Sequence record: NC_052658.1
Source: Escherichia phage nepoznato
DNA length: 64,000 nt
Reading direction: 5' to 3' (one strand)
The notes under the pieces are model-generated. The model saw only the letters and a program-made list of their open reading frames with translations. It was not told the DNA's origin and did not search any database. Position numbers and translations under genes: made by a program. Shown piece after piece: positions 30,983-59,546 of this stretch. Position 1 is the stretch's first letter; every line of letters begins with the position of its first letter.

Positions 30983-31184
30983 CCTTCAGACCCTTAATAA
31001 AGTAACGACCAACCGGATTCCCTCGGAAGTATTCGTTAATGAAATCGATAACACACGTTTCACTGCCTGTCACAACGGACGGCTTACAGTTTTGGAATTC
31101 TACAGCTACACGGCTGGCTTTAGCCAGTGCTTGCACACGTGTAGGATTAGTCAAGAACATTGTGACAGTTTTCAAATTCTTCAT
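30975..31184 (-). CDS. hypothetical protein
   Basis: 69-aa ORF. Confidence 0.45.
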   Translation of the reverse strand: MKNLKTVTMFLTNPTRVQALAKASRVAVEFQNCKPSVVTGSETCVIDFINEYFRGNPVGRYFIKGLKDA

Positions 31185-31242
31185 TTCATCTCCTCATTAA
31201 CTGTTTGTTATGCGCGGTATGCAAACTATCATACAAACATCT

Positions 31243-31617
31243 TTATTCAATGCAAGCATTATTTGCATCTTCAATTCTGTCTTTCACCCACTGAAGACGT
31301 AACGTGTTGGTATGACACGCCAAGTTTATACACTCTGAAAGGTAATCCATGCAATCTGCATTGAACGGAAGATTGTAGTCCAGCCCTGCACATGTAAATT
31401 GTTTCCTCATTTCATATTTCAAACGGTCTAACAAATGATCACGCCATCTTCTATCTTCTTCTCTAGTTGTCTCACCAACAAAATCATCTACGTAATCTAC
31501 CAGACAACCACATAAGCCACTCGTTGTGCGATTCATTGCAGGATAGTTGGCAATCCATGCTTTATAGAAGCGAAGCAATGTTGCACTACTCAACGGAACA
31601 TTTTTACTCTCTTGCAC
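31243..31617 (-). CDS. hypothetical protein, GLC.CL/LPFN paralog family
   Basis: FYKAWIANYP...GLCGCLVDYV ... LPFN. Confidence 0.5.
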   Translation of the reverse strand: MQESKNVPLSSATLLRFYKAWIANYPAMNRTTSGLCGCLVDYVDDFVGETTREEDRRWRDHLLDRLKYEMRKQFTCAGLDYNLPFNADCMDYLSECINLACHTNTLRLQWVKDRIEDANNACIE

Positions 31618-31955
31618 GATAATCTCCTCTCATCATTAGCCATCTTTCATGGCAATCATCAATCACCAACATCATACGATCAATCTTCGGCAATTACAAT
31701 CGAATTATCATAGGGGATTCCTATCAATTATCCCATATATACTGATTATTTTTGACACCCCACTCTTGTATAAAAAGTAACCCAAAATATCTACGGGGAG
31801 AGATTATTTCGGGACACCCTGTTTCATGGCAATCATGGCAAGAATATCTAATAGAATCAATATCATATGGCAAAAATCATGGCGTATACGTAAGAAGTGC
31901 TTAACGCGAATTTTCGGGCCGTCAGGTCCACGCAGCGACAATTCCCAAATATCAT

Positions 31956-31979
31956 GCGAATGAGAATAATTATCATTCG
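31956..31979. promoter_or_regulatory. Fur-box-like palindrome
   Basis: GCGAATGAGAATAATTATCATTCG; GATAAT/ATTATC hexamer arrangement. Confidence 0.3.
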
Positions 31980-32137
31980 TATTCAATGACTTATGCAAGG
32001 CTCATGCCAACATAGCGACAAGGTGGGCCACTTGATTATAAATCACACAAACACTTATTTATCAATGGTTTGGCAACTTCATCATATGACGGAACATTGT
32101 CAACTGATCCCGCTCATGACAAGCAGACTATTATTTA

Positions 32138-32156
32138 TATGAGAATGATTATTATT
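32138..32156. promoter_or_regulatory. Fur-box-like element
   Basis: ATGAGAATGATTATTATT. Confidence 0.25.
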
Positions 32157-32213
32157 TAAACGTTTATTAACATAAAAACTAAAATAAATCAAGATTATTC
32201 TGATTTTATTTAC

Positions 32214-32410
32214 GTTTAAGAGAAGGTGCTCAACATCCTACCGGATCGCCGTTGGCAATCCTGCGGATATTTACGCCCCCATGATTAAGGTTTATCTCTT
32301 TTCTTAGTGCTCAACATATCGCGTAGCGATAGTATTCGCCCCCGTGATATTTGCTCTTCTCTTAGTGCTCAACATTCCCGCCTGTGGCGGTAACATTTCG
32401 CCCCCAAAAT
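32214..32410. repeat. three direct iterons: CTTAGTGCTCAACAT box, variable short hairpin, (A)TTTCGCCCCC box
   Basis: Boxes near 32225, 32304 and 32363, each followed 30-40 bp later by CGCCCCC; spacing about 60-70 bp. Confidence 0.6.
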
Positions 32411-32453
32411 TATTGACTTTTATTCTATTATGTGCATAGTGTGCAATGTATCG

Positions 32454-32472
32454 GAATGATGATAATCATCCT
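32454..32472. promoter_or_regulatory. Fur-box-like palindrome
   Basis: GGAATGATGATAATCATCC (GATGAT-A-ATCATC). Confidence 0.3.
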
Positions 32473-32779
32473 CCCATTGCCCCCATAATTATTGCCATGC
32501 TAATTGTTTCCTTATGTAATTATCACAATGACTATTGTTATTGCGCTAATGTTATGATCTTGGTAATTACATATAATGCTAATAATAAGCCAGCGCAATA
32601 AGTGTAAGCGTCATTACGCTTGCAATTATTGCAAGCTACGCAGTAACAAGAAATAACCATCACCGATGGTTATGATTGTTGGGGTGTAGTTGGCTTATTA
32701 TTAGCTCGCTACGTGTCCGGCGTAGCGTGCTAATGATGAGTCTGTAAATGATTCATTGTGTAATGATTTCATTCAGGCA

Positions 32780-32995
32780 CTATTTTGCTAATAGTTATTA
32801 TTTTAATGGTTTCGTTTGTTATTGTTCGTTAGTTGGTTGTTTTGTCGTGTTATCGTTATCTTGCTTAGTATTCATCATGGTTTGATTGTTTGTCGTTATC
32901 AATCATCTTGCTATTATTCCTTTGATTATGATTAGTTTGCTTATTGTTTTATGTTGTTTGTTGGTTAGTTGTTGCGAACTATTATCAACATTATA
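32780..32995. repeat. T/G-skewed low-complexity tract (GTT/TTG-rich, nearly A-free on plus strand)
   Basis: About 200 bp of gtttgttattgttcgttagttggttgttttgtcg... with extreme strand asymmetry. Confidence 0.5.
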
Positions 32996-33030
32996 ATTAT
33001 GCGCTTATATTGCATAGATAATCATGGGTA

Positions 33031-33050
33031 GATGATAATGGTTATCATTG
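33031..33050. promoter_or_regulatory. Fur-box-like element
   Basis: GATGATAATGGTTATCATTG. Confidence 0.25.
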
Positions 33051-33271
33051 CACTAGAAAGGAGGTAAAAGGGTGTTTTTGATGGTTTGTTGTTGGTTGTT
33101 GATCGATTTTAACCGCTCTAAATGGCTCTCTAACAGCCTGTAACCCTGGGAGGTATGGTTATTCGTTTGCTGGTTGATTAGCTCGATACCGCGATTTATT
33201 CAGTTTTGTTCTGTGTCGGTTTTTCATAGGCGGAAGCTATCAATATTGTTCGGGCAAAAATAAAGGGCGCT

Positions 33272-33292
33272 TAGTGCGCCCCTTGTATAATC
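33272..33292 (-). terminator. intrinsic terminator (minus strand) ending the cassette array
   Basis: On minus strand GGGGCGCACUAAGCGCCC hairpin then UUUAUUUUU. Confidence 0.6.
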
Positions 33293-33661
33293 TTACTTTG
33301 TGCTGTTGTAAACGTTATCGCGTTCAACCATCACCGCAAGGCGGATCAGTTGATCAGTTGTATCGCGTAAATTGTCGGGCCATGTTTTACTGTTCCAGCT
33401 ATCCAGGTTTGATTGTATATAGGTTTCAATGGCTTGATCCATATTATCAAACAAGTTTTCCTCCAGGCTCTCGGCTGTTTCACACTGGAAAGCATTAGCG
33501 ACACTATTAATCAATAAGCAAGCCAGTAAATCAGCGTTGCGCCAATTTTTACGGATAGTTTCATCTGTCAGATAACCAACGAGATTAACCTTTGCGCCAG
33601 TGGTGGACGTTGCGATCACTTCTTGCGCTTTTTCAACTGCTTTAATTGCTGATTTGCTCAT
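33293..33661 (-). CDS. hypothetical protein (cassette 1 ORF)
   Basis: Track ORF 33293-33739 runs into the promoter; start moved to ATG (MSKSAIK) after RBS AAAGAGG. Confidence 0.5.
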   Translation of the reverse strand: MSKSAIKAVEKAQEVIATSTTGAKVNLVGYLTDETIRKNWRNADLLACLLINSVANAFQCETAESLEENLFDNMDQAIETYIQSNLDSWNSKTWPDNLRDTTDQLIRLAVMVERDNVYNSTK

Positions 33662-33677
33662 CTTCTTTTCCTCTTTG

Positions 33678-33739
33678 TGGGCTTGCTGTATTGCTCGCCC
33701 TACGTGATAAATAATAATATAAGGGTGATCCCGTGTCAA
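33678..33739 (-). promoter_or_regulatory. PeSL-like early promoter with weak leader hairpin (unit 1)
   Basis: Minus strand TTGACA, 17 bp, TATTAT, TATCACGTAGG, weak GC hairpin, RBS. Confidence 0.5.
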
Positions 33740-33877
33740 TAGGTAGAATTGTAAAGATTTGATAGTTTATCTCTTTGATGCTTTGTTGTTTGATAGATGT
33801 TAGCTATCAATATATAGCGGGGTCGTCCGGTGATTATCTTCCCTGTTTCCAGTGCCGCCCGTTCAATAAGCATAACA

Positions 33878-33905
33878 AAAAACAGGACAAAAACAAGCCC
33901 TGTTT
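33878..33905 (-). terminator. probable intrinsic terminator (minus strand)
   Basis: ACAGG...CCUGU hairpin followed by U-run on minus strand. Confidence 0.35.
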
Positions 33906-33913
33906 TGTAAAGA

Positions 33914-34117
33914 TTAGATGATCTGCATATCTTCCACGATAATTTCTAATTTCCAAACAAGATGATCTAAGCTCCCTGATAAAAATGATTCCGATACATA
34001 ACCGCCATCGGACACCGTAGCAAGGATCTCGCCATTTGCTTGCTCTTTGATTTGAACATCCAGGCGGTTAGCCTTTGCTTTGTTCAGGACGGCGATCAGG
34101 CGGTTAGCTGTAGTCAT
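33914..34117 (-). CDS. hypothetical protein (cassette 2 ORF)
   Basis: Start moved to internal ATG (MTTANRL) 20 nt after leader hairpin. Confidence 0.5.
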   Translation of the reverse strand: MTTANRLIAVLNKAKANRLDVQIKEQANGEILATVSDGGYVSESFLSGSLDHLVWKLEIIVEDMQII

Positions 34118-48548: not shown

Positions 48549-48992
48549 ATGCAAAACATCCAAAACATCAAACTAACTTGGCCCGAAGCTAAAGAAGCAA
48601 TGAAGGAAGGTAGACGTGTTGAGCACCGCCATTTTTGTGGTGGCGAATGGTTTGAGATGCGAGATGGTGTTATTCTCGACGAACAAGGTTATAACATGGA
48701 AACTTGGTTCAGAGGGGAAGCTTGGCAGGAAGAGGGTTGGTCTGTAATTGAAAAAGAAGACAGTAAGGAAGAAGGCGTGTTGTCTAATGTAGAACGCAAG
48801 ATGAGGGAAACAAAGATACCTGCTTTGGATTTTGTATACCTGGAAGAACTTGTGGCAGCATCTTTTGTAGCAGGAAATCTTTGGAATACACCTGTTAGCC
48901 GACTGGAGAACCAAAATAACCCATCTGCTCGTAATCACAAGCTTTATAAGGGTAAAGGTCACAACAAATTAAAGAAAGGAAAGAAGAAATGA
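48549..48992 (+). CDS. DUF2829-like protein (Tad2-like candidate) with basic C-terminal tail
   Basis: N-terminal LTWPEAKEAMKEGRRVEHRHF..W resembles the DUF2829 signature; C-terminal K-rich tail. Confidence 0.45.
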   Translation: MQNIQNIKLTWPEAKEAMKEGRRVEHRHFCGGEWFEMRDGVILDEQGYNMETWFRGEAWQEEGWSVIEKEDSKEEGVLSNVERKMRETKIPALDFVYLEELVAASFVAGNLWNTPVSRLENQNNPSARNHKLYKGKGHNKLKKGKKK

Positions 48993-56961: not shown

Positions 56962-57834
56962 ATGAAAGATTTGTACCAAGATGTTTTTTCTTTTTTAGAT
57001 CGCACTTCAGAAACATACACTAGAGAGAATGCAAACAAACCTTCCCACCTTGTTAACACGCACAGGGATCTCTTGGCGGGGATTTTAAGCAAACATATGG
57101 CAATGACACAGATACTGCCAAAAAACTTGTCAGAATGGCATACAGAAGGTTTTGGACATATTCACGACTTGGATTATCTGCTCTCTCCTCTTACAAACTG
57201 TTGTCTTGTTAATTATCAAGATATGTTAGAGAATGGTTTTAAGATCGGTGCTGCACAGATAGAAAAACCAAAATCTATTGGAGTAGCTACTACAGTGCTA
57301 ACTCAAATCATCCAAGCTGTTGCCTCCAGTCAGTATGGAGGTCAGACGTGTGCGCACATTGATAAAGGTCTTAGTCCTTATGTTGAAGCCAGTTTCCTTA
57401 AAAACATGGAGATAACCAAACGTCGCTACGGTTGTTATGCAAGGAAAGAAGCCCTAGAAATGACCGAACAAGATGTATATGACGCTATGCAAACTCTTTT
57501 GTATCAGGTTAACACTTTAATGAGTGTTAATGGACAATCTCCTTTTATTACAATCAGTATGGGTCTGGATACCTCTGTTTTTGGCAGAATGATCACAGCT
57601 AACTATCTTAAAGTGCATAGTAACGGTCTAGGTAAAGATCATGTAACGCCTGTATTCCCTAAAGTTATTTTCTTTTTACAAGAAGGTGTTAACATGAAAC
57701 CTAGTGATCCTAACTACGACCTTAAGCAACAAGCTTTGGCATGTTGTGCTGATCGTATTTATCCAGATTTTATTTCTGTTCCTTTGAACAAAGAAGTTAC
57801 GGGATCAGCAGATGGTACCGTTACGAGTATGGGT
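56962..57834 (+). CDS. nrdD: anaerobic ribonucleoside-triphosphate reductase NrdD, exon 1
   Basis: Colinear with T4 NrdD N-terminal half (NANK, RDL.AGI.SKH, NCCLV, ENGFK.G.AQIE.PKSIGVAT, SPMG); track ORF stop lies inside the intron. Confidence 0.85.
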
Positions 57835-58604
57835 AAACTATAACTGCTCATGTAAAATCTGCCTAAACGGGGGAACTCTCAACAGAGACAATCCCGTGCT
57901 AAACGTAACAGAACTCCCAACACAGAAGAAGGGGGTACTGATATGAGAAAACAAATTCGTGATTTTGAAGGGTATGAAATTGACGAGCTTGGAAATGTTT
58001 ATTGTACCAGGTATAAGGATGAAAGAATCCTTCGCTCGTGGGAAGAAATAAACACAGGATACCAACTTGTCAGAATACGTAAAAACAAGAAAACTGTTTG
58101 CTTTCGGGTGCACAGACTTGTAGCTGAAGCGTTTTTACCCAATCCAGACAATTTACCTTATGTGAAGCATAAAGGTGACAATAGGAAAGACAACAGTGTA
58201 TACAATCTTGAGTGGGGATCTTGTCCAGACAACACGCAAGAGGGTTACGATAATAACTGTTATGCTTTCTACACAAGGTGTCACAGTGTAAAAGCTACTC
58301 ATAAGGCTACTGGTGAAGTTTTTTACTTTAAAAGTCTGAGATGTTGTGCTGACGCTTTAGGGTTGGACAGAAAAAGAATATCTGCAATCTTAAAACAAGG
58401 AGCACCAAATAATTATGATTATGAGTTCTGTTACGAAATGCCTAACGACTAGCTGTGATGAATGTAGCAGCGTAGGGTGTAAGCCTATGACACCCCAAAT
58501 GGTAGACATGCTTTAAGCATGAAGATATAGTCTGATCTGCATGGTGACATGCAGCAGCACGTAATGGTGCGGGAGTGGCCTTGCGAGCCACTTTGAACAT
58601 AATG
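57835..58604 (+). mobile_element. group I intron in nrdD carrying an HNH homing endonuclease ORF
   Basis: 770-bp insertion between SMG and CRSFLS codons; exon 1 ends in T and the insertion ends in G; boundaries inferred from T4 NrdD alignment. Confidence 0.6.
57943..58452 (+). CDS. intron-encoded HNH homing endonuclease
   Basis: GYEIDELGNVY...VHRLVAEAFLPNP...KHKGDNRKDNSVYNLEWG motifs typical of phage HNH endonucleases. Confidence 0.75.
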   Translation: MRKQIRDFEGYEIDELGNVYCTRYKDERILRSWEEINTGYQLVRIRKNKKTVCFRVHRLVAEAFLPNPDNLPYVKHKGDNRKDNSVYNLEWGSCPDNTQEGYDNNCYAFYTRCHSVKATHKATGEVFYFKSLRCCADALGLDRKRISAILKQGAPNNYDYEFCYEMPND

Positions 58605-59546
58605 TGTAGAAGTTTCTTGTCATACTATGCAACAGAGCAAGGAGAAAAATATGATGGACGATTCAACCTTGGAGTAGTTTCTATCAACTTGCCTCTGATT
58701 GCTGCGGAAGCGAGAAGTAAAGGAGAATCTTTCACCGATCTTCTTAATAAACATATGGAGATAGCCTACGATGCTCACATGCTACGTGTAAACCGTATCA
58801 GACATACCAAAGCATCTGAAAACCCTATTCTTTTCATGGAAGGGGCTTTAGCGCGTTTAAATGCCAATGATGAAATTGGTGTTTTGTTTGAAGGTGGTTA
58901 TGCTTCTATTAGTATTGGTTATGTAGGTCTTGCCGAAGCTTTGGAAATCCTTTATCCAGAAGAAAAAGATAAAAAGGAACTTGGTAAAAACATTCTGCAA
59001 CATATGAAAGATGTGTGTGCTGTGTTTAAAGAGCGATCTAAGCTGGCATTTAGTCTCTATGGAACTCCAGCAGAATCTTTGTGCTATAAGTTTGCAACAG
59101 CTTTAAATGAAAAATACCCAGGTTTGGTAGAAAGAGACTATCTTACTAACTCTTTTCATCAACCTGTATGGTTGGTAACAAATCCTTTTGAAAAATGGGA
59201 TTATGAAGCAGGTTTTGCACAGATTAGTAATGGTGGTAACATAAGTTATGTCGAAACACCAAACTTAAAGAATAACTTAGAAGCTTTGGAGACTTTAGTA
59301 GACTACGCTTATGAACATATTCACTATTTTGGTATTAATCAGCCCGTGGATCAATGCTTTAAGTGTGGTTTTCATGGAGAATTTAAGGCAACGGCTAAAG
59401 GGTTTGAGTGTCCTGATTGTGGCAACCATGAAGAAGAAACTATTTCTGTAGTTAGACGTGTATCAGGGTATCTTTCTGCTCCTAATTCACGGCCTTATAA
59501 CAAAGGTAAAATGCAGGAAGTTTTGCAAAGGGAGAAACATCTTTGA
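58605..59546 (+). CDS. nrdD: anaerobic ribonucleoside-triphosphate reductase NrdD, exon 2
   Basis: CRSFLS...NLGVV.INLP, TPAE.LCY.F, Zn-site CFKCG...CPDCG and glycyl-radical motif RVSGYL; joined product about 604 aa. Confidence 0.85.
   Translation, partial: CRSFLSYYATEQGEKYDGRFNLGVVSINLPLIAAEARSKGESFTDLLNKHMEIAYDAHMLRVNRIRHTKASENPILFMEGALARLNANDEIGVLFEGGYASISIGYVGLAEALEILYPEEKDKKELGKNILQHMKDVCAVFKERSKLAFSLYGTPAESLCYKFATALNEKYPGLVERDYLTNSFHQPVWLVTNPFEKWDYEAGFAQISNGGNISYVETPNLKNNLEALETLVDYAYEHIHYFGINQPVDQCFKCGFHGEFKATAKGFECPDCGNHEEETISVVRRVSGYLSAPNSRPYNKGKMQEVLQREKHL

Follow-up and report, generated by a model that had tools for sequence, protein, structure and literature searches.

Direct repeat units in Escherichia phage nepoznato as probable border signals of a terminal repeat shared with related coliphages

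Three direct repeat units of Escherichia phage nepoznato probably represent the border signal, i.e., the terminase cut signal, of an exact direct terminal repeat (DTR), with the second and third units as dispensable extra copies. We analyzed a 64,000-nucleotide stretch of this phage (sequence record NC_052658.1; hereafter the window), and the genome records of close relatives show unit 1 to carry the right DTR border and a diverged unit to carry the left one. A previous interpretation made without any database search (hereafter the sequence-only reading) had listed packaging among several possible roles for these repeats, and it is this option that the data favor: the right DTR border of relatives falls within the first conserved box of unit 1, and the left border bears the same motif.

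The window derives from a Phapecoctavirus genome (phAPEC8-like myovirus, subfamily Stephanstirmvirinae) and is 95–98% identical to many E. coli phages. The repeat units are located in a 1.7-kb non-coding island (Table 1) with minus-strand genes on either side, and are immediately preceded on their left by a very AT-rich stretch (32130-32215). No GC-skew turn was detected at the repeat site, and a Pfam scan of ten window proteins, including those of both island-flanking ORFs, identified no terminase, initiator, or recombinase near the repeats. Many GenBank records of relatives start or stop within this island, and public records of Phapecoctavirus begin at many arbitrary positions.

Table 1 Features of the 64,000-nucleotide window discussed in the text.
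Feature	Position	Strand	Composition and remarks
Non-coding island holding the repeat units	31618-33292		1.7 kb
ORFs flanking the island	31243-31617 and 33293-33739		No Pfam match
Left-border cut motif	31897..31905	+	GTGCTTAAC; virion DNA of relatives starts at 31902/31903
Direct terminal repeat (DTR)	31903..32230		328 bp, or 329 if T at 31902 is counted; mapped from the ends of relatives
Left-border hairpin and C-run	31916..31953		Imperfect GGGCC-GTCA-GGTCC at 31916-31929; block AATTCCCAAATATC at 31940-53
Unit 1	32216..32280	+	Purine run TTAAGAGAAG; box1 32226-32236; hairpin A 32243-32261; box2 TTTACGCCCCC 32270-32280
Hairpin A (unit 1)	32243-32261		GGATCGCC-GTT-GGCAATCC; 8 pairs
Unit 2	32296..32343	+	Pyrimidine run CTCTTTTCTTA; box1 32307-32317; hairpin B 32318-32330; box2 TTCGCCCCC 32335-32343
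Hairpin B (unit 2)	32318-32330		ATCGC-GTA-GCGAT
Unit 3	32354..32405	+	Pyrimidine run CTCTTCTCTTA; box1 32365-32375; hairpin C 32378-32390; box2 TTCGCCCCC 32397-32405
Hairpin C (unit 3)	32378-32390		CCGCC-TGT-GGCGG
Structured element	32578-32727	+	~150 nt; ~170 bp right of unit 3; ~675 nt from the left genome end

All three units are in the same orientation and follow the same plan, in which box1 (GTGCTCAACAT) is followed by a unit-specific hairpin and then by box2 (T(T/A)CGCCCCC). The direct units with a box/hairpin/box plan described in the sequence-only reading are indeed present, at 32226-32405, and the two inverted repeats it had singled out were recovered in units 2 and 3. Several of its details required correction: unit 1 has GAGAAG before box1 in place of the "CTTAG" prefix ascribed to every unit, the closing box is not uniform (unit 1 box2 carries one mismatch), the distances from box1 to box1 are 81 and 58 bp rather than 60–70 bp, and a diverged fourth copy at 31897 had been overlooked. 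Hairpin A includes one C.A mismatch on the + strand, i.e., G.T on the minus strand. The pyrimidine run of unit 3 is the reverse complement of the unit 1 purine run, and the spacers between units are homologous, with the hairpin part replaced.

These repeats are specific to this location in the window. The box1 11-mer is found exactly three times in 64 kb, always within a unit and on one strand, and the shorter GTGCTYAAC reaches six copies against 1.05 expected in the window (0 of 100 shuffles reached six), including four on the + strand within a 480-bp interval (31897-32373). For hairpin types B and C and for the hairpin of a more distant relative (phiWec188), the probability of a perfect 5-bp stem with a 3-nt loop in such a short spacer was ~0.01–0.03 each, as estimated from shuffling or against the genomic background. 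When folded as single-stranded DNA, the units were modestly better than shuffles (z -1.0 to -2.4), and as minus-strand RNA they also beat shuffles (z -3.8, -2.0, and -4.4). Two sets of additional candidates were rejected as chance matches, namely a possible extra copy at 48616-48647(-), which lies inside an ORF and has its box order reversed, and the 18 loci returned by an IMG/VR scan for the pattern GTGCTCAACAT-N(8-38)-CGCCCCC, all single matches in unrelated contexts.

The link to genome ends comes from the records of relatives. The DTR is present only once in the window, which must therefore read across a collapsed end or a concatemer junction. In the Mt1B1_P17 and WPEC1 records, the first base corresponds to window position 31903 and an exact prefix = suffix of 328 bp is seen, and the Schickermooser record starts at 31902 with an exact prefix = suffix of 329 bp; these three end-bearing records were produced by separate laboratories. 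For Schickermooser, a 328-bp terminal repeat was reported by Korf et al. 2019 (PMC6563267). At the other end, the Mt1B1_P17, Schickermooser, WPEC1, and dw-ec records all finish with ...TGCT at the equivalent of window 32230, the match to three SA_NWU phage records stops at this same position, at the record terminus, and the 3A1_SA_NWU record ends with ...GTGCT, again corresponding to 32230. The dw-ec record (GenBank OL739525.1) provides direct physical evidence for both DNA ends, with one adapter joined to AACGCG... and to ...GATGCT. As a separate observation, the 211 and 156 nt of non-phage adapter/barcode sequence retained at the ends of OL739525.1 represent a contamination of this record.

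Across the 13 Phapecoctavirus records in which both borders could be measured, the cut-to-cut distance was 329. The right border is positioned after T32230, within box1 of unit 1 (...GAGAAGGTGCT^CAACAT). By transfer from relatives 95–98% identical to the window, we infer that the DNA ends of nepoznato itself are at 31902/31903 and 32230. The left-end base differs among records (TAACGCG or AACGCG), and the right end is constantly ...GCT.

The left border reads ...GTAAGAAGTGCT^TAACGCG, and shares the core motif of the right border in the same orientation and, within one base, the same register: GTGCT^TAAC is found at the left and GTGCT^CAAC at the right, and both are conserved in 20 genomes. Together with the imperfect hairpin and C-run that follow it (Table 1), this copy at 31897 may constitute a diverged "unit 0". 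The hairpin component, which includes one G.T pair on the + strand, is weakly supported because its single-strand fold does not exceed shuffles, and a different palindrome occupies the same position in a distant clade (TTCCGGC-N14-GCCGGAA in phiWec188). Similar borders are found in another genus of the subfamily: the annotated 343-bp DTR of phi92 has borders GGTGCT^TAACGCG and TAGGCT^CAACAAA, and a 342-bp DTR was assigned by PhageTerm to its relative BME3. The motif (T/G)GCT^YAAC, with a purine-rich run before the cut, is common to both borders in Phapecoctavirus and phi92, and thus appears to mark both borders across the subfamily.

Two side observations relate to these borders. Near-identical phages differ in the two bases at -6/-5 from the right-border cut (window 32221-32225: AAGGTGCT, AAGATGCT, AACTTGCT, and AACGTGCT), and the left-border copy is invariant within the genus. 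Outside of the subfamily, the 459-bp PhageTerm repeat of the Vequintavirus LL12 (MH491969 104966-105424) has one border at GGAGTGCTGCCA^GG, in which GTGCT is present with the reported cut 5 nt further on, and its other border is unrelated. Either the exact cut register is therefore confined to the subfamily, or the published LL12 coordinates are approximate. This LL12 border also displays a GAGTGCT repeated just upstream and a block AATTCTCAAATATC downstream, and in that respect resembles the left border of nepoznato.

Next, we compared 31 units across 20 genomes. The repeats are conserved in relatives: at least one unit was found in each of the 20 genomes, and the number of units was 1, 2, or 3 among phages 95–98% identical. 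Within the genus, three hairpin types (A, B, and C) occur in a constant order, and the observed combinations are ABC (only in the nepoznato window), AC, BC, AB, B alone, and C alone. Type B comes first or stands alone in some phages, and type C is the only unit of Schickermooser and ESCO13; the hairpin adjoining the cut may be A, B, or C, and the boxes are constant. The upstream context distinguishes the first unit from later ones: first units are preceded by GTTTAAGAGAA-NN-TGCT in 20 of the 20 genomes, and later units in every case by a pyrimidine-rich run, the reverse complement of the purine run, which reads CTCTTYTCTTAGT (CTCTT(T/C)TCTTAGT) in all of them but that of ECML-183-2, altered by a small deletion. 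Both two-unit phages with readable ends (WPEC1 and dw-ec) end at the first unit.

The way in which units differ points to recombination. Deletion end points are located in box1 or box2, so the boxes seem to act as recombination sites. In addition, five genomes have GTA and six have TAC as the loop of hairpin B; this inversion of the palindrome is found in every architecture class and suggests recurrent template switching at the hairpins. In a clade ~70% identical to nepoznato in the island (phiWec179, phiWec188, and PsgM04F), each phage has one unit with the same box1 and a related box2 (TTTCCCCCGC or TTCGCCCCC), along with a different palindrome in phiWec188 (CCGCC-ATA-GGCGG) and weak palindromes in phiWec179 and PsgM04F. 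Finally, phi92 retains the cut motif and has neither a hairpin nor CGCCCCC after its right border.

For all elements but box1 of unit 1, a serious alternative, albeit one we consider unlikely, is that they are functionless by-products: only this box would matter as a cut site, and the hairpins, box2, and units 2 and 3 would have arisen through snap-back or template-switch repair at a leftover end, which makes palindromes, and unequal crossing-over, which duplicates them. The variable copy number in near-identical phages and the deletion end points within boxes are consistent with such an origin, as are the inversion of the hairpin B loop, which is typical of template switching at palindromes, the homologous inter-unit spacers with a replaced hairpin part, and the use of the same motif by phi92 with no hairpin or box2. 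However, a complete unit was missing from none of the 20 genomes compared, and two clades sharing only ~70% identity in the island have both kept box2 and a palindrome beside the cut. Moreover, conservation is far stronger in the boxes than in the hairpin sequence, pointing to selection on the boxes.

If the units are border signals, as we favor, the terminase complex would be predicted to recognize an oriented site. A cut at the left copy would begin a genome, and one made in the right copy, 328 bp further along when the next junction is reached, would finish it, with the 328 bp between the cuts duplicated by synthesis such that both ends carry the repeat. A 1-nt 3' overhang removed on blunting would reconcile the one-base discrepancy between records. 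How the opposite-strand nicks of the classical repeat-duplication scheme would be made is not accounted for by a directly repeated asymmetric site alone.

More tentatively, the GC-rich hairpin and C-run found after each cut, on the same side, may act as an accessory element, which could seat the small terminase subunit or stop the translocating motor. This role is favored by the conservation of the boxes, by the ease with which the palindrome is exchanged, and by stems improbable by chance, whereas the modest folds and the exceptions among relatives argue against it. Specifically, since phi92 has no hairpin or CGCCCCC at its right border and the palindromes of phiWec179 and PsgM04F are weak, the hairpin and box2 cannot, on comparative grounds, be a universal requirement for cutting. 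Natural one-unit phages exist, which indicates that units 2 and 3 are dispensable and that one complete unit beside the repeat is enough. Units 2 and 3 would thus be best seen as extra copies gained and lost by recombination between boxes.

A structure-specific version of this mechanism appears improbable. Here, the packaging enzyme would recognize the box/hairpin/box module by its extruded form, a hairpin or cruciform between two fixed boxes, and the extra copies would provide alternative or back-up termination sites or stall the motor. Structure-specific recognition would explain why the palindrome can be freely swapped and flipped. If true, one would expect virions with right-end repeats of ~328, 409, and 467 bp, or a motor stalled at the extra modules, and the modules along with the structured element 170 bp away would form a composite end-proximal control region of a kind undescribed for large myoviruses.

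The sequence-only reading had also suggested replication-origin iterons or tiny structured RNA genes, and neither holds up well. Under the first of these, a phage initiator would bind the three direct repeats and open the adjacent AT-rich DNA, which would fit the non-coding surroundings of the repeats and the highly AT-rich sequence on their left. The spacing of 81 and 58 bp is however irregular, a single unit suffices in relatives, and the copy number (1–3) is not conserved even in near-identical phages. Furthermore, no DnaA box (TTWTNCACA) was found in 31000-34000, there is no turn in GC skew, and the flanking ORFs have no Pfam match, hence no recognizable initiator. As the first repeat coincides with the physical DNA end, its conservation is already accounted for, and we regard an origin as very unlikely.

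The alternative that each unit is or lies within a small structured RNA, or serves an early transcript from the genome end as a hairpin-type promoter or processing site, we judge very unlikely. The minus-strand RNA folds do exceed shuffles (see above), stems with 3-nt loops and conserved flanks are found near a genome end, and a genuine structured element is present on the + strand 170 bp away. N4 early promoters, which consist of hairpins with a short stem, a 3-nt loop, and conserved flanks and are read by a giant RNA polymerase carried in the virion, are similar in form. Yet ARAGORN detected no tRNA or tmRNA and Rfam at gathering scores returned nothing in the window; when relaxed to E<=5 on the island, the Rfam search yielded only sub-threshold snoRNA/miRNA noise, none of it over the units. 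Promoter- and terminator-like sites were no more frequent than in shuffled sequence, and the units are not flanked by any. About half of the relatives carry hairpin B with an inverted loop, hairpin sequences are swapped freely, and pairing is best on the minus strand for hairpin A and on the plus strand for the left-border hairpin. Finally, the largest ORF in the 64-kb window of this ~150-kb genome is 530 aa, leaving no giant virion RNA polymerase in the window.

Two other site types were considered and dropped. GCTCAAC fits the RYYYAAC of integron attC sites, and no inverted GTTRRRY partner closes any unit. A cohesive-end, lambda-type cos site is at odds with the 328-bp terminal redundancy of relatives.

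Among known systems, the T7/T3 concatemer junction is similar in having an exact, non-permuted terminal repeat of a few hundred bp with sequence-specific ends at both borders, a small repeat array directly inside the left terminal-repeat copy, and inverted repeats near the processing site. The T7 repeat arrays and the hairpin-intermediate model reportedly go back to work by Dunn and Studier in 1983 and by Chung, Nardone and Hinkle in 1990. Unlike T7, nepoznato is a 150-kb myovirus, unrelated to it, with the same oriented motif at both borders, box/hairpin/box modules of ~40–55 bp in 1–3 copies instead of 7-bp repeats, and no involvement of a phage RNA polymerase pause site.

In lambda, cos combines the cosN nick site with the three R repeats of cosB, which are bound by the small terminase subunit. 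In both lambda and nepoznato, up to three direct repeats lie to one side of a cut site, and this repeat side stays with the DNA to be packaged at initiation, provided that packaging runs left to right. However, ends of the nepoznato type are terminally redundant (328 bp in relatives) rather than cohesive, and the cut motif itself recurs within the nepoznato repeats. Iteron origins likewise have several direct repeats in a non-coding AT-rich region, but the irregular spacing, the copy number down to one, the lack of a recognizable initiator, and the first repeat at a DNA end all set nepoznato apart. A further comparison is within the subfamily, where phi92 (Justusliebigvirus) and Schickermooser have a homologous region with borders at the same GCT^YAAC register, phi92 differing in having no hairpin and box2 after the right border.

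The island also holds the structured element listed in Table 1, a candidate new phage non-coding RNA or single-strand DNA signal. Its model consists of a 15-bp outer stem (GCTAATAATAAGCCA / TGGCTTATTATTAGC) around two arms, followed by a 3' hairpin. RNAalifold on ten relatives yielded 61 pairs, none broken and 4 compensatory, with 9 compensatory when phi92 was added, and the + strand is indicated by several invariant G.U pairs. Even relatives that share only ~70% identity over the rest of the island retain a column identity of 96% here. The phi92 homologue is found at L044:424-618 (-), with one loop flipped (ACC/GGT) in the same manner as hairpin B, and no Rfam match was obtained for this element. 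Within the island, it may be more novel than the repeat units.

Other sequence features were noted in the island. On the minus strand, a 20-mer, CC(A/C)T(C/G)TTTCATGGCAATCAT, is present twice (31640-31659 and 31817-31836), and the second copy supplies TTGCCA-18-AATAAT, the best promoter-like match of the island (10/12), which is directed towards the small genes of the right genome end, possibly as an early promoter. On the + strand, a promoter-like TTGACT-16-CATAGT directly follows box2 of unit 3 (32413-32440), and a strong Shine-Dalgarno sequence (AAGGAGGT) precedes a 23-codon hydrophobic ORF (VFLMVCCWLLIDFNRSKWLSNSL; 33060-33143); both are on the strand opposite to every neighboring annotated gene. 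AT-rich palindromes resembling Fur boxes (e.g., AATGAGAATAATTATCATT and GATGATAATCATC) were identified at 31956-31980, 32141-32159, 32455-32473, and 33028-33052, the first of which is inside the terminal repeat and kept in phi92. Overall, 10 of the 22 matches to the Fur consensus in the window (<=5 mismatches) fall in the island, which represents 2.6% of the window.

Far from the island, the anaerobic ribonucleotide reductase gene nrdD is split between two ORFs (56962-57843 and 58575-59546) covering profile positions 1-263 and 263-562. The 731-bp gap (57844-58574) includes an ORF, starting at 57944, that resembles an HNH homing endonuclease by eye. This interruption is probably an intron, although Rfam returned no group I intron at gathering score.

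That phages of this group have a terminal repeat was already established. The papers and records consulted on the repeats of the group give only their length and position, and in these we did not find the shared border motif or the box/hairpin/box units described. Taken together, the border-signal interpretation would make this anonymous repeat a packaging signal open to testing across the phAPEC8/phi92 group, whose broad-host-range coliphages are used in phage-therapy cocktails. The motif GCT^YAAC with a purine-rich left half would predict true genome ends from sequence, enabling consistent orientation and annotation, and a minimal packaging signal would represent a defined engineering target. 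The natural one-, two-, and three-unit variants would provide a series for probing the role of the hairpin and C-run in these phages.
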